A stretch of 62,290 bases of DNA from a virus (taxonomy: Duplodnaviria; Caudoviricetes), in the IMG/VR virus record IMGVR_UViG_3300005529_000038, positions 1 to 62,290 of that record; one strand, 5' to 3'. A program made the translations under genes and the position numbers. Positions 1 to 29,361 of this stretch are shown here, one piece after another (position 1 is the stretch's first letter; every line of letters begins with the position of its first letter). The notes beneath the pieces were generated by a model, which was not told the DNA's origin, ran no database searches, and saw only the letters and a list, made by a program, of their open reading frames with translations.

Positions 1-326
1 GACCATTGCTTTGCTCGACGCGCCACACCTATCCGGCCATCCCCCGCCCCTCCTGACGACGCCTTGCCCATCCGAGCGTTACCCGACCCGGCCGGCCGCT
101 CCCCGCCATGCCTTTGCAAAAACCGCCGGTCCATTCCTTGCCTGCCTTGCCTCGTCTCGCCGGGCCTGGACCTGGCTGTCATTCCTGGCCGCGCCAGCCC
201 GACCATGCCTTTGCACAAGCTGCCATGCCACACCGCACCGGAGCGCGGACTCGCCTCGCCTGCCACGCCGGGCCTCTCATGGCACGCCTAGCCAATCCGG
301 AGAGCGCCGCACCATTCCTGCCATGC
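1..326 (-). repeat. GG(Y)-NN pentamer array 1 (about 6 units, runs off the window edge), candidate guide ncRNA
   Basis: Minus strand reads ta-GGC-at-GGCA-GGA-at-GGT-gc-GGC-gc...GGC-ga-GGC-ga...GGT-gc-GGT-gt-GGC-at... with 5-nt periodicity and 4-nt GGCA/GGCC/GGCT phase breaks near 320, 261, 221, 196, 143, 94 and 35; no credible ORF. Confidence 0.85.
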
Positions 327-824
327 CTAAGCCGCCGGGCGATCGTCACGCGCGGCATCTTCAAATGCGCGTTCGGCTTCGACCGCGATGTCGAGCATCC
401 GCTCGAAATGCGATGCGAGGCCGAACACCTTTGCGAGTGATCGACCGCGTGACAATGCGCCCTTCACTCTGGAAAGTTCGTCTTCGAGTTGGGCCCGAGC
501 CGCGGCACCGCGCCGCGCGATGCGCATCGTTTCGATGTAGCCCGTCTCGTCTTGCGACTGATCCGCGACGTAGTAAGGCGCGCTGATTTTGACGTCCTCG
601 AAGACGATCTGCAGCCGCACTTCCTTGATCAACGATCGCGCGGTGTCGCGCCAATGGGCCTCAGCTGCTTTCTGAATGTCCCATTGGAAACAGCTGTGCA
701 GCACGCTCTTGGGGTTGCGGGCAGCCGCGACGACCGTGTCAGGATGGACGCGGCCACTGCGGTCTGCGCAGGCCTTGATGGCCTTCGCCCTCAATTCCAG
801 GAGTGTCGTTGCTTTCTTCGCCAT
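327..824 (-). CDS. Conserved phage protein, companion of the RAMP-like gene
   Basis: 165 aa, motif HPDTVVAAARNPKSVLHSCFQWD..AAEAHW...ARSLI; lies between the RAMP-like gene and array 1. Confidence 0.8.
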   Translation of the reverse strand: MAKKATTLLELRAKAIKACADRSGRVHPDTVVAAARNPKSVLHSCFQWDIQKAAEAHWRDTARSLIKEVRLQIVFEDVKISAPYYVADQSQDETGYIETMRIARRGAAARAQLEDELSRVKGALSRGRSLAKVFGLASHFERMLDIAVEAERAFEDAARDDRPAA

Positions 825-1458
825 GGTTCACCGTCTGAGAGTTTTGGCGCCGGCGCGATCACGCGAAACTGACCGTATGATCCGCCCTTCTGCGGGCGCC
901 AGTCACCGAGACCGACAATGATGCCGGCGGCGGCGAGCAGGTTCACGATCTGCGATTCCTTGATCAGCGATGCAACGAACCTAACCTCGACAGTGCAGCA
1001 CCACGACGGGAATATCGGCCGCGTGCGAACGTCTGGCGTGCGCGCCATGTCGCTCGATCGCACCATCGCCATGAACATTTCCGGCAGGCCGAAGACGTTG
1101 ACCTGCGTCGACGCGATCGACGTAAGCGCGACATCTGCGCTTTCGTCGCGCCGGGAATATCAACCGCGGCAGCGGCCAGCGCTTTGCCAAATGCGTTGCT
1201 CGGATAGTGAAACAGCGCGGGCTCGGCGTTCGATCTGTTCTGATACAAGGCCTCGACGAATTCGGCCTTCGGGTCATGCTTCAGCGATTCCGACTTTTCG
1301 GCGCTGTTCTTTTTGCCGCTCGGTAGCAACAATTCATGCCACGCTTTTGAAGCGAAACGATGCATGACGAGCGGACTTGTCCCGACCAGGTTTGCCCTGA
1401 TCGTACCCATTCGAATTTCCTGGATCTCGACTGCGGTCTCTTTTGCCTTCTTCACCAT
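791..1458 (-). CDS. Cas7/RAMP-like RNA-binding protein (Vipr-like), 1-nt frameshift near 1123-1127
   Basis: N-terminal beta strand NLVGTSPLVMH, internal YPSNAFGKAL and VRTRPIFPSW, and C-terminal glycine-rich loop AGIIVGLGDWRPQKGGSYGQFRV typical of RAMPs; joins ORFs 964..1713 and 791..1078; AGAGGAG RBS upstream of ATG 1458. Confidence 0.75.
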
Positions 1459-1528
1459 GACAACGAAAAACTCCTCTGTTGTTCGCATTTGGTTGAGATT
1501 ATCCGGCCCAACCTTCCGGTCTTTGAAA

Positions 1529-1595
1529 TGCCGGCCCTGCCATGCCATGCCCAGCGAGGCCTTACCGCTCCACATCAATCCGCGCCTGCCTCGCC
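1529..1595 (-). repeat. GG(Y)-NN pentamer array 2 (single unit of 10 pentamers)
   Basis: taa-GGC-ga-GGCA-GGC gc GGA tt GAT gt GGA gc GGT aa GGC ct CGC tg GGC at GGC at GGC ag-GGCC-GGC. Confidence 0.85.
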
Positions 1596-2924
1596 TTAAC
1601 TCTTGTCCGCGTCCCTGATCTCGCGCTGCTTCTCGGCCAGCCGCTCCTGCAACGCCTCGCGCGATTCGGAGGAGACGTTGCACTTGTTGCGCATCGTCTT
1701 CTCGCCGGACCATTGCTTGTCGCCAGCATCGGCGTCGACCAGCGCCTCGATCCAGCCTTGTGCGTGCTCGATATATTCGCGCTCATTGGCCGGAGCCCTG
1801 GGTGAGTCAGCCGGCTTGTCCTTCTCGGCTGTGGATGGCTTCGACTTGTCCACCGTTTCAACAGGCTTGGCCTTGTCGGCCGTCTTGCTGCCGGCATCGG
1901 CTTCTGTAGAAGTGGCCGGGCTCGCGGATGCTTTGCCTCCTGCATGCGTCCCGGCCTCCGAAGATTGCGCGGTCGTGGAGACCTCTTCGGCAGATTTCTT
2001 CGCTGACGAATTCGCCGCCTCGTCAGCGCTCGCGGCCTGGCCTTTGCCCGCCTCCCCGGCTGCGTTGGCCGGGCCGCTAGTCACCTCGCCAGTCGCTGGA
2101 TCGATGTGCTCGCCCTTCGGCGGGAAGCAATCATCGGCTGTTGCCATGCCGTCGGCGATGGCCTTGCCCATCGCGATGATCTTGGCAATGTCGGGCGCCA
2201 GCCAGTCCTTGCGCGCGCGGCCGAGCACAGCCTCGGCGCGGCTCACGTCGACGCCGATATTGGCAAGGCTCGCCGCGATCCTCTCGCGCCACTTCGCAAG
2301 GTCTTTGCCGATCTTCTCGACCAGCGAGTTCTTGGCCTGGTCGAACGCGTAGTCGGCGAAGGTCTGCAAGCTGTTGACGACGACGTTGCGGACGGCTTTC
2401 GAAACGCCGATCTGGAACGCAATGTCGAGCCGGCGCGCGTCGTCCGTGCCGCCCATCTTCGAACCGCCCTTGTTCTGTTGGAACGGGCGGGTCAGCGCAT
2501 AGCCGCTTTCGTAGTCGATGAACCTGGCATAGATCAACCAGCTCGGCCCGAGATCGATGACGCGGGTATCGATCTCGCAATTGCCATAGATGCGCGCGAG
2601 GTCATTGGCGAGCTTGATCGACGGGCCTTCGATGAAGTCCTGCACCCACTCGTCTTTGCCGGTCTCCTTGTTCTTGATCTTTTTGCGCACCGGGAATCGA
2701 TAGTACCAATCATCGCCGGCGGCGGCACCGAGCGCGGCGAGCTTCTGCAGCACGCGCTGTTCATCGCGGTAAATCGCGACCTTCTGCGCGCCGAACATGC
2801 GGTCGACACCGCCGGACGACATTGGCATGACCTGCAAGCCGTTGTCCTCGCGCGGCGCGGCTTGTGCGAAGGCATCGAGCGCACTGCGCCTGGACTCGCG
2901 TTCATCGTGGTCGATCGTGCTCAT
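1596..2924 (-). CDS. Putative single-strand annealing/recombination protein with low-complexity C-terminus
   Basis: Motifs EGPSIKLANDLARIYGN and IGVSKAVRNVV; same operon as the YqaJ exonuclease; GGAGAG RBS before ATG 2924. Confidence 0.55.
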   Translation of the reverse strand: MSTIDHDERESRRSALDAFAQAAPREDNGLQVMPMSSGGVDRMFGAQKVAIYRDEQRVLQKLAALGAAAGDDWYYRFPVRKKIKNKETGKDEWVQDFIEGPSIKLANDLARIYGNCEIDTRVIDLGPSWLIYARFIDYESGYALTRPFQQNKGGSKMGGTDDARRLDIAFQIGVSKAVRNVVVNSLQTFADYAFDQAKNSLVEKIGKDLAKWRERIAASLANIGVDVSRAEAVLGRARKDWLAPDIAKIIAMGKAIADGMATADDCFPPKGEHIDPATGEVTSGPANAAGEAGKGQAASADEAANSSAKKSAEEVSTTAQSSEAGTHAGGKASASPATSTEADAGSKTADKAKPVETVDKSKPSTAEKDKPADSPRAPANEREYIEHAQGWIEALVDADAGDKQWSGEKTMRNKCNVSSESREALQERLAEKQREIRDADKS

Positions 2925-2932
2925 GGTCTCTC

Positions 2933-3712
2933 CTATTTGCGCCAGCGCGCTTTGTCGGTTTCGAAGATGCGGGCGCCGGTGATGGAGTGGCGGCCGGATT
3001 TGACGTAGGCGCGGAGCGCCTTCTCGATATCGGCCGCGGCGAGGAACGGCCGCAGCGCCTCCAGGTCGATGATATTGAGGTCGACGCTGTCGAAGGTCCA
3101 TTCGGTCTGCAGGCCGGCGGTGCCGCCGGTGGTGCGGGTGTGCGCGAGCGATGCCATCGGTGCGGCGGCTTCGCGTTCCTTGGCATTGGCGAAGGCGGTC
3201 AGGGCGCTCGCCTGCGCATCGGCCTTGATCGCCTCGACCGCATGCACGATTCCTGGCGCGGTCTCCGTCTTGGCCTTGGCCTCCTCGGCCTTGCGCAGCG
3301 CTTCGGCGGCGGCCTCAGCTGCGGCCTTGGCCTGCGCTTCGCGCGCCAGCCGTTCGCGCTCGGCCTTCTTTTTCAGATACGCGGTCCCGACCTTGTCGAG
3401 CACGGCGGCGCGGGCCAATGCACGCTGCTGCAGGCCAACCTTGAAAAAGGATTGGATGATGTTGCCGGCATCGATAATGGGCCGCTTTTCATCTTCGCGG
3501 ATGCCGTCAGTTTTCTTCTCAAAGGCCTTGAGGTCGGTGATGGTCTTGGTGAGCAGCGCCAGATCCTCTTCGTCCTCGAGGACCGGCGGCGTCTCGATGG
3601 CCTCCAGCGCCGCCAGCTCGGTTTCGAGGTGGGCATAGTCGGCCTTGAGCGATTCCGCGGTGACGATCGGCGGTCGCTGGTTGTCCTTCGGCGTGATGGC
3701 GCGCTCAGTCAT
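2933..3712 (-). CDS. Coiled-coil phage protein of the recombination module
   Basis: 259 aa, Ala/Glu/Lys-rich helix, C-terminal ALRAYVKSG..ITGARIFE; translationally coupled to its neighbours. Confidence 0.7.
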   Translation of the reverse strand: MTERAITPKDNQRPPIVTAESLKADYAHLETELAALEAIETPPVLEDEEDLALLTKTITDLKAFEKKTDGIREDEKRPIIDAGNIIQSFFKVGLQQRALARAAVLDKVGTAYLKKKAERERLAREAQAKAAAEAAAEALRKAEEAKAKTETAPGIVHAVEAIKADAQASALTAFANAKEREAAAPMASLAHTRTTGGTAGLQTEWTFDSVDLNIIDLEALRPFLAAADIEKALRAYVKSGRHSITGARIFETDKARWRK

Positions 3713-5009: not shown

Positions 5010-5290
5010 CGGCTGTCGACCTCGACCTGCGGCCAGCGCTCGCCGGTGACGCGATAGACGCCGGTGATCTCTTTCTGGCCGGCGGCGTCCATCTGGCGTG
5101 CGAGGCTGACAGCCTCCGTCGCCTTGATGAACGCGATATGCGTCGGTCCAAGATAGACAGCGACCGCGTTTGGATCGTGCGGATTCTCTGGATCGCGGCG
5201 CAGCGTCAGCGCCGTGCCAGCACTGAGGGATGCAACAAGCCGCTCACTCTTGCGATGCTGCATCCCCACCAATGTTGCGAGCTGCCTCAT
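5006..5290 (-). CDS. HIRAN domain protein
   Basis: LVGMQHR...LTLRRDPENPHDPNAVAVY...HIAFI; AGGAGG RBS before ATG 5290. Confidence 0.85.
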   Translation of the reverse strand: MRQLATLVGMQHRKSERLVASLSAGTALTLRRDPENPHDPNAVAVYLGPTHIAFIKATEAVSLARQMDAAGQKEITGVYRVTGERWPQVEVDSR

Positions 5291-5360
5291 AGTGCCCCTC
5301 CTGGCCAAGCCCTTGCCATTGCCCGCCACGCCATCACGTTCCTAGCCATGCCGGCCTCGC
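5291..5360 (-). repeat. GG(Y)-NN pentamer array 3
   Basis: ta-GGC-ga-GGCC-GGC at GGC ta GGA ac GTG at GGC gt GGC...GGC aa...GGC ca GGA gg GGC ac; starts at the stop codon of the upstream gene. Confidence 0.75.
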
Positions 5361-5576
5361 CTAATCATCTTCCGACTCCGGTTCCTCGAAGGTTTGCAGT
5401 CCCCACCACTTGCTCATGCAGGCCGTGCAGAATTGCGCGGCATGCTTGTCGTTGAACAGGATCAGCGGCACTTCGCGCTCGCCGATCGACGTGAAGCAGT
5501 AGGAGCACAGCGCCGATTGCGTTGGGCTCCAGGCCACGCGGCTCCAATCGAAGCCGGGTTTTGGCTTGAGCGTCAT
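5361..5576 (-). CDS. Small Zn-finger-like protein
   Basis: CSYC...CTAC; ATGA overlap with the upstream gene. Confidence 0.65.
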   Translation of the reverse strand: MTLKPKPGFDWSRVAWSPTQSALCSYCFTSIGEREVPLILFNDKHAAQFCTACMSKWWGLQTFEEPESEDD

Positions 5577-16309: not shown

Positions 16310-16541
16310 AGCCGCCGAGATCCTCCTCGACCAGGAGATCGCCGGCCTGGACGTCGTCGAGGACGCGGCCGCGCTGGTAGTAGTGCTCCGGCCGCGGCGT
16401 TGGATCGCCGCGGGTTTTCCACACCCGCCGATAGCTACGGAGGTTCCGCTCCTCCTGCAATTCGCGCGACCACCAGCCGAGCACGAAGGCCAGCGCCAGG
16501 CCGGCAACGATCAGGATCAGCACAAGCCAGTCTGGCAGCAT
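16260..16541 (-). CDS. Small membrane protein
   Basis: N-terminal hydrophobic helix WLVLILIVAGLALAFVLGWW. Confidence 0.45.
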   Translation of the reverse strand: MLPDWLVLILIVAGLALAFVLGWWSRELQEERNLRSYRRVWKTRGDPTPRPEHYYQRGRVLDDVQAGDLLVEEDLGGFNCAGKYVPPRGPRPR

Positions 16542-26427: not shown

Positions 26428-29361
26428 TTGGCTGAAGACGAGATCAAGAAAGAGGCGGCCGTCGCGCCGCCTGGGCCGCCCAACGTCGAGCGCGACGCCA
26501 CGCTGGTCACCATCACCGGAGATCCCAAAGCCGGCCCGATGGCCGAGATCGGCGTCTCTGGCCTCAAGGCCTTCTCCGGCTACATCAACGAAGAATACCT
26601 GCATGAGCTGCAGGGCCAGAAGGCGATCAAGGCCTATAACACGATGGGGCATGACCCGATCGTGGCCGCGGTGCTGCAGGCGATCACGCTGATCCTGCGC
26701 GCCGTCGACTGGCGCATCGAGCCGGCCGACGACGGCAGCGACGTGCAGAACGATCACTCGGCCCAGGCCGAGAAGGAAGCCGAGTTTGCACAGCAGCTGC
26801 TCGACGACATGTCCCACACTTGGGAGGACACGGTCGGCGAGATTTGCAGCATGCTGCAATACGGCTGGAGCTATCTCGAGATCGTGCTCAAGACCCGCAA
26901 CGGTCCCGACCAGGACGACGGCGCGCGGCGATCGAAGTACGACGACGGCCGCATCGGCATCCGCAAGCTGCCGCTGCGCTCGCAGGACTCACTGTATCGC
27001 TGGCAGCTGCAGACCGACGGCGGCGTCGATGGCATGTGGCAGCAATCGCCGCAGGGCGGCCCGCAGCTGTTCATCCCGATCCAGCGCGCGCTGCTGTTCC
27101 GCACCACCTCGAAAAAGAATTCGCCGGAAGGCGTGTCGATCCTGCGCGCGTCCTACCGTCCTTGGTACGTCAAGCGCGGCATCGAGGACCATGAGGCGAT
27201 CGGCATCGAGCGCGAGCTCGCCGGCCTGCCCGTGGTCAAGATCCCGAAGAAATATCTGGCGCCCAACGCGGCGCCGGCCGACATCGCATTCATGAACAAG
27301 ATGACGGCGCTGGCGCGCGACGTGAAGATGAATTCGCAGGCCGGCGTGGTGCTGCCGAGCGAGACCTTCGTCAATCCGGACGGCACCTGGTCGTCGGTGC
27401 CGATGGTCAGCCTCGAGCTGTTGTCGAGCGGCAGCTCAAAGCGCGGCATCGACACCGACCCGGTGGTGAAGCGCTACAATCGCCTGATCGCGATGGCCGC
27501 CCTCGCCGACTTCCTCACGCTGGGCGATGAGAAGGGATCGTTCGCGCTCTCGCAAAACAAAAGCGAGCTGTTCCTGCGGGCCTGCAAAGCCTACCTCGAC
27601 CAGATCGGTTCGGTGATCAACCGTTTCCTGTTCCCGCGCATGTTCTCCTACAACGGCATCGCGCATGAGCTGTTGCCGACGGCCAAGCCTGGCCGCCTGT
27701 CACCGGTCAACCTCGCCGAGCTTGGCAACTACATCGCGCAACTGGCCTCCGCCGGCGCGCCGCTGTTCCCGAACCAAGACCTTTCCGATCATCTCGCCGA
27801 CGTCGCCGGCCTGCCGGAGCCGCCACAGGATATCGGTCTGTTGGCCGAGCCTGGCAGCGTGCCGCGCATGGGCCAGATCAATCCGGACACCGGCGAGCCG
27901 ATGACGCTCGACGAACACGCGGAGTTTCAGCAGGCGCAATACGGCGACCAGTCGTTCGAAGACCAGGCCATCACGCCGGCCGCAGCGCAAGGCGCAGGCG
28001 CGGCCAAGCGCCGTTTCTTCCCGGTCGGAGGCGCGCGCAAGCGGGCGCCCCTCCCTTTTTCGAAGCGGACGACGACGAAGTTTAACCAGGCGCACGATCA
28101 GCATGGCCGGTTCGCCGCGGCCACCGGCGCCGATTCGGATCATGGCGTCGTCCCGCCGAAGATGGCGGACGATGAGTGGCACCGCATCCTCGCCGAAGCC
28201 AAAGAGCGCAACGACACCACCGAGGCCCACGTCAACGACGTTCTCGGCTCGAAGAACAACATGGCGGTGTACACCCATCCAGATCGCCCGCAGCGACGCG
28301 TGGTCGTGTCGCGATCTTTGGACGCGCGCTACGGCATGCGGGTCACCGACTTTGACGAGAAAGGCCCGATCGGGCATCGCGAGTATTCGACCGGCGATCG
28401 GCGCGGCCTGCATTCGGAGATCAGTCAGGCGCTCGCCGGCGGCATGAAACGCACGGTGCTGAAGTATGACGAAAGCCTGCATCCGCGCGATGAGCACGGC
28501 CGCTGGACGTTCGGCAACGGTACCAACGGCATGGCGACCGCGCTCTACCAGCAAACGCTCGAGCCCAACGTCAAGCCGGAGGACATCTATAACCGCGTCG
28601 ACCCCGATGCGCAGCGCGCCGCGACCGAGCTCGAGGCCGACATGGCCAAACGCGTGCCGTCAGATCAGCCCGTCGAGCACGGCGGTTTTATGCGGCCAGA
28701 TGGCAGCTACACGCCGGAGCGCCAGGCGCTGCATGAGAAGCTGCTCGATCACGTCTTCACGCCGGAGCGGATCGATGCCGCAACGCCGGTGGAAGGCGAG
28801 AAGCCGACAATGACGATGCTGGGCGGCCGCGGCGGTTCTGGCAAAAGCTTCCTGACCGACCCGTCGAAAGGTGGTCCGGTCGACCCGAACCGAACCATCG
28901 TGCTCAACTCCGATGACTTCAAAACGCCGCTGGCGAAGGCGTCCGGCCTCGATGAGCGCTATGCAGCGCTCTACCATGAGGAATCCGATCACGTCCTCAA
29001 GATGGCATCGGCGCGCGCCAAGGCGCTTGGCGTCAATGTCGCGTTCGATGCGACGATGAAGAGTGAGAGTACCGCGGCCGCGCGCATGCTGGAGTATCAA
29101 AATGCCGGCTACGTCATCAACGGCCACTACGTTCACACGGCGCCGCAGCTGGCGGCGCAGCGTTCGATCGGGCGGTTCTACAAAGGCGGCAAGGCCAATG
29201 GTCGCTACGTGCCGCCGGCAGTGATCCTGGGCAACGTCAACAACGAAAAGAACTTCGACAAACTCAGTCCCAACTTCCGCAGCTGGTCGATCTGGGATAA
29301 CAACGGGTCCAAGCCCGCGCTGGTCGCGCATAGCCCGACCTTCAAACCGAGCTTTAGGTGA
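26428..29361 (+). CDS. Portal protein (DUF935-like) fused to a C-terminal zeta-toxin-like P-loop kinase
   Basis: First ~470 aa portal (YGWSYLEIV, PEGVSILR.SY, GIERELAGLP, GSFALS); C-terminus GGRGGSGKS, LNSDDFK, VAFDATM, GRYVP. Confidence 0.85.
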   Translation: MAEDEIKKEAAVAPPGPPNVERDATLVTITGDPKAGPMAEIGVSGLKAFSGYINEEYLHELQGQKAIKAYNTMGHDPIVAAVLQAITLILRAVDWRIEPADDGSDVQNDHSAQAEKEAEFAQQLLDDMSHTWEDTVGEICSMLQYGWSYLEIVLKTRNGPDQDDGARRSKYDDGRIGIRKLPLRSQDSLYRWQLQTDGGVDGMWQQSPQGGPQLFIPIQRALLFRTTSKKNSPEGVSILRASYRPWYVKRGIEDHEAIGIERELAGLPVVKIPKKYLAPNAAPADIAFMNKMTALARDVKMNSQAGVVLPSETFVNPDGTWSSVPMVSLELLSSGSSKRGIDTDPVVKRYNRLIAMAALADFLTLGDEKGSFALSQNKSELFLRACKAYLDQIGSVINRFLFPRMFSYNGIAHELLPTAKPGRLSPVNLAELGNYIAQLASAGAPLFPNQDLSDHLADVAGLPEPPQDIGLLAEPGSVPRMGQINPDTGEPMTLDEHAEFQQAQYGDQSFEDQAITPAAAQGAGAAKRRFFPVGGARKRAPLPFSKRTTTKFNQAHDQHGRFAAATGADSDHGVVPPKMADDEWHRILAEAKERNDTTEAHVNDVLGSKNNMAVYTHPDRPQRRVVVSRSLDARYGMRVTDFDEKGPIGHREYSTGDRRGLHSEISQALAGGMKRTVLKYDESLHPRDEHGRWTFGNGTNGMATALYQQTLEPNVKPEDIYNRVDPDAQRAATELEADMAKRVPSDQPVEHGGFMRPDGSYTPERQALHEKLLDHVFTPERIDAATPVEGEKPTMTMLGGRGGSGKSFLTDPSKGGPVDPNRTIVLNSDDFKTPLAKASGLDERYAALYHEESDHVLKMASARAKALGVNVAFDATMKSESTAAARMLEYQNAGYVINGHYVHTAPQLAAQRSIGRFYKGGKANGRYVPPAVILGNVNNEKNFDKLSPNFRSWSIWDNNGSKPALVAHSPTFKPSFR

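Follow-up and report, generated by a model that had tools for sequence, protein, structure and literature searches.

What is the G-rich repeat that occupies the left end of the virus record IMGVR_UViG_3300005529_000038, and why is its five-nucleotide phase broken again and again by elements of four nucleotides? The record, a linear IMG/VR entry of 62,290 bases, about 80% complete and 64% G+C, was analysed at its full length and is called the window below; the repeat, array 1, lies on the minus strand of its first 327 nucleotides (nt). We conclude that array 1 is probably the downstream array of guide RNAs (vrRNAs) of a VIPR system, in which the 4-nt breaks mark the limits of the guides, and that the copy carried here is worn. 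VIPR, described for the first time in 2026, is a CRISPR-related DNA-silencing system of phages; it comprises Vipr, a minimal RAMP protein, and the accessory gene vap; the available passages of the preprint (10.64898/2026.04.26.720920) describe vrRNAs as 9-16 YNNGG repeats with a conserved GGY and a hypervariable NN, distinguish seven VIPR types, and report that NN reads double-stranded DNA with one base skipped per unit. The same passages and the legend of its fig. S18 describe staggered arrays, in which vrRNAs overlap by 1 nt; the small-RNA sequencing confirmation that these passages contain is given for the other two array architectures and not for the staggered one.

Read leftwards from 327 to 20 on the minus strand, array 1 resolves into 63 tandem units: 29 canonical GGYNN pentamers, 19 degenerate units of five nucleotides, 11 units of four and four units of six. 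Its G-rich strand contains 146 G in 326 nt, and pairs of GG dinucleotides at a lag of five were counted 35 times, while 2000 first-order Markov simulations of that strand gave 11.1 ± 4.3 (maximum 36). The array opens with the unit GGCAT (327-323), which takes in the G of the stop codon TAG (329-327) of the preceding, vap-like gene. Two further tracts of the window, an array upstream of vipr (array 2) and a short third one (array 3), lie like array 1 on the minus strand, the strand of vipr. Over the 72 five-nucleotide units of the three arrays, in a parse fitted to GGY, the information content is 1.50, 1.27 and 0.46 bits at positions 1-3, and 0.07 and 0.05 bits at positions 4-5.

The repeat is tied to a known system by the genes beside it. 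Relatives were fetched by an exact 16-mer from array 2, which occurs in at least 119 viral contigs, treated here as loci and denoted by L numbers. Among the matches listed, 74 of 119 loci contain GG(N2-3) arrays with lengths from 50 nt upwards, the longest being 1,160 nt, on contigs of 42-74% G+C, while the remaining 45 are coding or unrelated occurrences of the 16-mer. Open reading frames (ORFs) no more than 2.5 kb from the arrays clustered into two families. Family A (vipr) is found in 58 of the listed loci, with 58 of 58 ORFs on the G-rich strand at a median distance of 136 nt from the array; family B, to which the vap-like gene of the window belongs, is found in 52, with 55 of 55 ORFs on that strand at a median distance of 28 nt. 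A profile of 26 family-A proteins matched PDB 36pp_D, 'SUSP1 Vipr protein', at an E-value of 5.9e-18 over positions 19-193 of 211, and the C-terminal piece of the window Vipr (794-1126) matched the same chain on its own (E 1.8e-4). The segment VRTRP...GLGDWRP of the window protein aligns with SUSP1 residues 135-183, including R138 and D177/W178/R179, and equivalents of H17, R138, D177, W178 and R179 are all retained; in the available part of a further preprint (10.64898/2026.04.26.720927), these five residues hold GGY, with one Vipr protomer per repeat. Pfam searches with the 26 Vipr and 24 vap-like members returned no family above chance. The initial annotation had taken the repeats for guide RNAs, and the Vipr homologue together with the published vrRNA repeat bears this out: they are vrRNA repeats, and the window system is VIPR, not of type II. 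As a separate observation, a tblastn search with the Vipr of L022 alone found unannotated homologues ('hypothetical protein') in 34 cultured-phage records, comprising 27 from Mycobacterium, five from Gordonia, one Pseudomonas LESphi2 and one cyanophage Cy-LDV1.

The function of the 4-nt elements was approached through the relatives, of which 94 non-redundant arrays (26.6 kb) were parsed with all GGYN 4-nt units scored alike. Of the pentamers, 3,907 were canonical and 618 degenerate, and the parse also yielded 499 canonical 4-nt units; GGCA accounts for 424 of the 499 (85%), or for 377 of 452 (83%) without the 47 breaks that lie inside the search 16-mer. Between breaks, canonical pentamers form runs (n=189) whose lengths peak at 7-11 units with a mode of 9, and show a minor peak at 1-2. 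The NN around 348 breaks are variable, the sole bias being towards A, which fills the first N of the unit before the break in 59%, and across 4525 units of the relatives GGY is conserved (1.71, 1.62 and 1.08 bits) while NN is free (0.12 and 0.02 bits), the pattern that the initial annotation had proposed as a check. L088 and L115 differ by an 83-nt indel, present in L088, that equals two GGCA-bounded runs, and L071 and L093 have one guide in common up to a GGCA, beyond which nearly all NN differ and GGC stays. In 42 uninterrupted segments, 1-2 units separate the last break from the end in 23, and the start from the first break in 16. The cleanest grammar is that of L112, whose array, situated between vipr and vap, repeats GGCA and then 7-10 pentamers seven times. 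No common tail motif was detected in the 50 nt after the ends of the 94 reference arrays (CAAAG in 7/94). Two pentamer registers that overlap by 1 nt appear in DNA as a 4-nt GGCA with GG after it, and these arrays therefore have the published staggered architecture; from this grammar, the breaks look like guide boundaries. Among the loci, staggered arrays that are both very long and clean, reaching 1,160 nt or roughly 20 guides, were noted in L112 (1632-1931), L036, L122, L057 and L019, and in 13 listed loci the array stands between vipr and vap and not after vap.

These data can be placed on the published mechanism, in which Vipr would coat the G-rich RNA with one protomer per GGYNN pentamer, GGY would be buried in protein, NN pairs would read double-stranded DNA with every third base skipped, and the outcome would be the silencing of rival mobile elements. 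The 4-nt units would then be -1 register shifts, in this clade almost always GGCA and placed every 8-11 pentamers, which would mark the limits of separate, back-to-back, tail-less guides. Because each GGY is held by two adjacent protomers, a -1 shift should stop the filament; a Vipr filament that cannot hold its register across the shift would make each in-phase run a separate guide ribonucleoprotein. A bolder version, which as a whole we regard as speculative and rather unlikely, would make the GGCA-GG shift a nuclease-free and tail-free boundary by which one transcript is split into guides through phase, with breaks no more than 1-2 units from the array ends capping filaments, the array-2 guide, aimed at the conserved RNA-binding motif of vipr, serving as an autoregulator or an anti-rival weapon, and array 1 representing a turnover zone of duplication and slippage.

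How does array 1 itself compare with this grammar? Each of the seven phase breaks named by the initial annotation is a 4-nt unit at the place it gave (four GGCA, one GGCT, two GGCC), and their start-to-start distances of 58, 40, 25, 53, 49 and 59 nt agree with its estimate of units of roughly 25-60 nt. Four further 4-nt units (GGCG at 288-285 and 127-124, GACA at 180-177, GCCA at 176-173) and four 6-nt units had been missed, so that the phase shifts more often than was stated, and some of the 'breaks' merely offset a +1 shift at a 13-mer spacer. The interior in-phase runs measure 6, 4, 3, 3, 1, 2, 3, 4, 3, 1, 3 and 11 units, a median of 3, against a median of 8 (interquartile range 5-10) for 470 interior runs of the relatives (Mann-Whitney p 4e-4). 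Two of the 48 reference arrays with at least six runs are as fragmented. Canonical pentamers make up 29/63 (0.46) of the units, compared with a minimum of 0.48 and a median of 0.78 in 64 reference arrays, and GGCA makes up 4 of the 9 GGY-type 4-nt units. The 11-unit run at 93-39, whose flanking breaks are spaced 59 nt apart (5n+4), is the sole clean run of guide length in array 1. Beside the published length of 9-16 repeats, array 2 has a run of 10 units and array 1 this run of 11, with a further one of 9 if two non-GG units are counted; the other 12 array-1 runs have 1-6 units. With most in-phase runs below 9-16 repeats, the 25-60-nt pieces are mostly not credible guides. Judged by its sequence, array 1 is a worn copy of a staggered array, most of which is probably no longer usable as guides.

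Other readings of the breaks have to be weighed against this one. Taken at its word, the initial annotation would make each break an RNA cleavage site and all the 25-60-nt pieces working guides released from one transcript. The breaks are indeed real, in relatives they are specific and evenly spaced, and a legend in the available part of the first preprint mentions, for staggered arrays, 'boundaries of individual processed vrRNAs'. However, 12 of the 14 in-phase runs of array 1 contain 1-4 units and the others 6 and 11, most pieces would supply 2-12 informative bases, far under the published 9-16 repeats, two of the six spacings between the named breaks fit 5n+4 (49 and 59 nt), and the two-gene module encodes no nuclease; we consider cleavage at every break decidedly unlikely. 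What survives of that proposal is the separation of guides by breaks in the relatives, where the breaks are specific, regular and bound modules, while the pieces of this copy are mostly too short. A different division follows the 13-mer whose recurrence had also been pointed out: CCATGCCTTTGCA is present in exact form at 106-118 and 203-215 of the plus strand, 97 nt apart, and its copies lie within a 41-nt imperfect direct repeat of 73% identity. The true units could then be vrRNAs of about 97 nt, delimited by A/U-rich 13-mer spacers (minus strand TTTTTGCAAAGG, CTTGTGCAAAGG) like the ~100-nt vrRNAs of type II; cleavage by host RNases would take place in the A/U-rich spacer, which lacks protection, and the inner 4-nt shifts would be tolerated or reflect decay. 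Besides the exact spacing inside a longer repeat, a degenerate third copy (GCAAAGCAATGG) at 19-8, about 100 nt further on, speaks for this division, as do similar AAAG interruptions in L022 and after array 2 (TTTCAAAG) and the ~100-nt vrRNAs of SUSP1, each preceded by a T-run and a conserved leader. Yet array 1 shows no conserved structured tail and no inverted repeats, no common motif follows the 94 reference arrays, and several register shifts per 97-nt unit should break a single filament if one protomer binds each pentamer, so this reading appears quite unlikely.

The wear of array 1 raises the question of whether the whole locus is dead, with vipr a true frameshift pseudogene and array 1 a decaying, functionless relic. 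One base is missing in codon 111 of vipr, near 1127-1132, array 1 exceeds 46 of 48 reference arrays in fragmentation, and none of the 64 has so low a canonical fraction. The frameshift, however, lies no more than 6 nt from the junction of two independent contigs: the sole public run with window DNA, a DNA run that may be the source sample, assembles 1-1119 (depth 7.1) and 1127-1700 (depth 10.2) separately. A third contig of the same run has 18-mers in common with the window at 933-950 and 1105-1122, which hints at strain variation, or at an artefact of joining, where the block formed by the vipr 3' half, vap and the array begins; the frameshift may be a join artefact or a strain mixture and not real. 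Both halves of vipr also retain the RNA-contact residues, the vap-like gene is intact, and in array 2 the guide still holds its register over 10 units and matches vipr in a non-random way. On balance a dead locus is unlikely. Array 1 might, finally, not encode guides at all and instead be a G-quadruplex or R-loop former, a protein sponge, a set of iterons or a low-complexity coding region. Its strand has a strong excess of G, and ORFs are open across array 1, as would be expected of any GGCNN repeat; but the 4-nt and 6-nt units disrupt every reading frame, Rfam gives nothing (no match in a gathering search of the whole window), and the tight same-strand linkage to a Vipr homologue in 58 loci, together with the published vrRNA repeat, suffices to explain the tract, making such readings extremely improbable. 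Candidates considered earlier, namely TRAP- or CsrA-like protein-binding RNA, Chi-like or R-loop/G-quadruplex DNA, Rho loading sites on the C strand and pentapeptide coding, had been dropped upon the link to Vipr.

Several observations weigh against the interpretation of array 1 as a worn staggered vrRNA array and should be set beside it. No RNA run was listed among the public runs with window DNA, and the transcription, strand and RNA ends of the arrays are deduced from gene orientation and from the way the arrays abut stop codons. Family B showed no detectable kinship with SUSP1 Vap1 by hhalign (probability 0.1). A mismatch-tolerant search with the array-1 11-unit run in 2 Mb reached at best 16/22, equal to shuffles, and a natural target was found for none of the array-1 runs. 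The reference arrays, fetched by a 16-mer that holds a GGCA break and canonical units, are biased to tidy arrays, and L022, the closest Vipr relative among the matches listed (51-53% identity), has many degenerate units too; part of the 'erosion' may be a trait of the subclade formed by L022 and the window.

Targets of the guides were sought among DNA sequences. Exact skip-rule patterns for the 10-unit run of array 2 and the 11-unit run of array 1 gave 0 and 0 matches in viral_contigs. When 325 reference guides and two window guides (one mis-registered) were compared with ~1 Mb of viral DNA, the skip-1 rule performed no better than controls, with 30 matches at an identity of at least 0.85 against 18 for skip-0, 20 for skip-2 and 25 for shuffled guides. 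Against 94 vipr and vap genes the same guides gave 0 matches at that threshold, versus 0-4 in shuffles, and this lack of excess indicates that targeting of vipr is not general in the clade.

The array-2 guide is a case of its own. Its 10-unit in-phase run (1586-1537) lies between GGCA (1590-1587) and GGCC (1536-1533), and the sole window site at which it scores 15 or more is 1343-1371, within vipr itself; the next best site scores 14. All nine skipped bases (9/9) fall there on codon position 3, the wobble position, and the codons concerned, 30-39, encode the conserved strand that bears the H17 equivalent. Unit-shuffled guides reached 17/20 in 0.35% of 2000 trials (p about 0.004), and 2 of 184 reference guides did so. 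Against 58 other vipr ORFs the best score was 16/20, in L043, and among the 20 top-scoring of these ORFs the best site was the homologous motif in 17. The three mismatches of the guide would read Ile31, Arg34 as AGR, and Thr37. The available part of a third preprint (10.64898/2026.10.15.759431) describes guides against rivals' vipr genes, with self-matches scoring lower. The mismatches to its own vipr indicate that the intended target may be the vipr of a rival; the guide may aim at such a gene, with three mismatches sparing its own, or it may be a regulator that dampens the vipr of its own phage. On the evidence of this match, the VIPR locus was probably once, or is still, active.

The contig is that of a soil phage, and its VIPR locus sits in a leftward early operon. 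The leftmost 6 kb form this minus-strand operon, which includes a YqaJ/RecE-like exonuclease and a HIRAN-domain gene, YqaJ and HIRAN being the sole Pfam matches among ten early-operon proteins. In the direction of transcription the locus runs array 2 (1520-1595), vipr (794-1458), vap-like gene (330-824) and array 1. Arrays 1, 2 and 3 each begin at or overlap the stop codon of the preceding gene (TAG 327-329, TAA 1596-1598 and TAG 5361-5363), which leaves no space for promoters of their own, and they are therefore probably read as part of the operon transcript. A promoter and terminator scan of 1-1800 returned a single weak promoter-like site on the minus strand (1527-1498) and no terminator on that strand. 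Array 1 reaches position 1, where the contig of the sole public run with window DNA also ends, and an exact 40-mer of window 1-40, sought in metagenome_contigs as a leftward extension, had 0 matches. Array 3, at a distance of 3.8 kb from vipr, occupies all the space from an 86-aa gene to the HIRAN-domain gene and extends into the GGAGG ribosome-binding site of the latter; it may represent a remnant or a solo vrRNA. The genes that precede the VIPR module encode a phrog_3657 protein with an Ala-/acidic-rich low-complexity tail (1599-3101, minus strand) and a phrog_10477 'exonuclease' (2936-3712, minus strand), for neither of which Pfam gave a family; beside the YqaJ/RecE-like exonuclease, the two genes look like a recombination module. 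The sole tRNA of the record is tRNA-Gly(TCC), at 16380-16465 on the plus strand.

The vap-like gene of the window is intact, and its protein carries the motif LH..F.WD...AA..R...AR. The family-B structural model (predicted local distance difference test score 88.8) has N-terminal helices and a beta-hairpin. In Foldseek, winged-helix domains were weak matches to the N-terminal half (E 0.08-0.2, probability up to 0.80), with no match for the fold at E 0.001 or better, and a wider fold search (VIA) was dominated by the C-terminal helical hairpin. Searches for close relatives of the protein found none in viral_contigs and none in metagenome_contigs. Three relatives reached through a 434-aa neighbour (L002-L004, 48-63% identity) contain one or two short GG chains each.

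Coordinates of the arrays, their breaks and repeats, and the associated genes in the window
Feature	Position	Strand	Remarks
Array 1, putative downstream vrRNA array	1-327	-	tail-less GGYNN pentamers with 4-nt register breaks; cut by contig end
4-nt break GGCA	319-322	-	
4-nt break GGCA	261-264	-	
4-nt break GGCA	221-224	-	
4-nt unit GGCT	196-199	-	regains phase lost at the 13-mer spacer just upstream
4-nt break GGCA	143-146	-	
4-nt break GGCC	94-97	-	
4-nt break GGCC	35-38	-	
13-mer copy 1, CCATGCCTTTGCA	106-118	+	minus strand reads TGCAAAGGCATGG, an A/U-rich interruption of the G-rich tract
13-mer copy 2	203-215	+	97 nt from copy 1
Clean in-phase run of guide length, array 1	39-93	-	11 units, 6 canonical GGY; bounded by two GGCC
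9-unit run, provided TTTTT and GCAAA are taken as in phase	98-142	-	from GGCA 146-143 to GGCC 97-94; 49-nt spacing
vap-like accessory gene, family B, phrog_15946	330-824 (327-824 with stop)	-	165 aa
vipr, RAMP-like guide-binding protein, family A	794-1458	-	two frames, 1-nt gap near 1127-1132
Array-2 guide match site within vipr	1343-1371	+	codons 30-39 (LVMHRFASKA); 17/20 informative positions
Array 2, putative upstream vrRNA	1520-1595	-	starts directly after the stop (1598-1596) of a 501-aa gene
Array 3	5290-5361	-	short GG-pentamer tract, in-phase runs of at most 5 units

What does this locus add? VIPR is a minimal RNA-guided DNA-binding system and a proposed ancestor of the CRISPR RAMP proteins, of which so far only the tailed type II has been studied in depth. 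The Vipr link and the grammar place the window in an already known system, and what is added here are numbers for its staggered punctuation: the locus and its roughly 70 relatives give GGCA as the boundary and 8-11 pentamers as the guide length, and further figures describe modules that turn over at breaks and arrays that begin and end near one. The available passages of four 2026 VIPR preprints contain no figures on 4-nt punctuation, which their supplements may hold; one of the four (10.64898/2026.10.21.760802) reports, in the part available, VIPR arrays recovered through a 5-nt entropy period. Such numbers indicate where RNA ends may lie and which single-base insertion should fuse two guides, while an eroding array and a guide that spells vipr bear on the decay, self-regulation or mutual conflict of VIPR systems.

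Compared with known systems, the locus is closest in form to staggered VIPR as described in the available passages of the first preprint, with which it shares a Vipr homologue with one accessory gene, phage-encoded, and tail-less, back-to-back GGY/NN guides in which neighbours are offset by one base, visible in DNA as a 4-nt unit (GGCA then GG). In the window such GGCA-GG junctions stand at 322-319, 264-261, 224-221 and 146-143 with irregular spacing, and the copy differs in its median run of 3, in a GGCA share of 4/9 against 85% in relatives, and in a third position that is often a purine (GGA). The type II system of SUSP1 (NC_028808.2: vipr 28474-29061, vap1 28031-28471; PDB 36pp), with one vrRNA upstream and three downstream of vipr-vap1 according to the same passages (10.64898/2026.04.26.720920), has the same succession of array, vipr, accessory gene and arrays on one strand and a homologous Vipr in which H17, R138, D177, W178 and R179 are kept. 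Its vrRNAs, in contrast, are separate genes of ~100 nt, each built of about 12-15 GGTNN units in phase, free of 4-nt breaks and closed by a conserved hairpin/pseudoknot tail, which the window arrays lack, and the accessory protein of the window is unrelated to Vap1 by profile comparison. Like the vipr-targeting vrRNAs of the SUSP1 family, as far as these are described in the available text, the array-2 guide spells early vipr codons, skips at wobble positions and matches its own gene imperfectly (17/20), but the phage that carries it itself encodes vipr, and none of the 58 vipr ORFs offers a better rival match. With the crRNA-Cas7 filaments of class 1 CRISPR systems, finally, VIPR shares, in the sources as available, a RAMP protein that polymerises on guide RNA and flips bases at a fixed period; it differs in that repeat-spacer units, a Cas6-type processing hairpin and adaptation genes are all lacking, and in a period of 5 nt with two informative bases.

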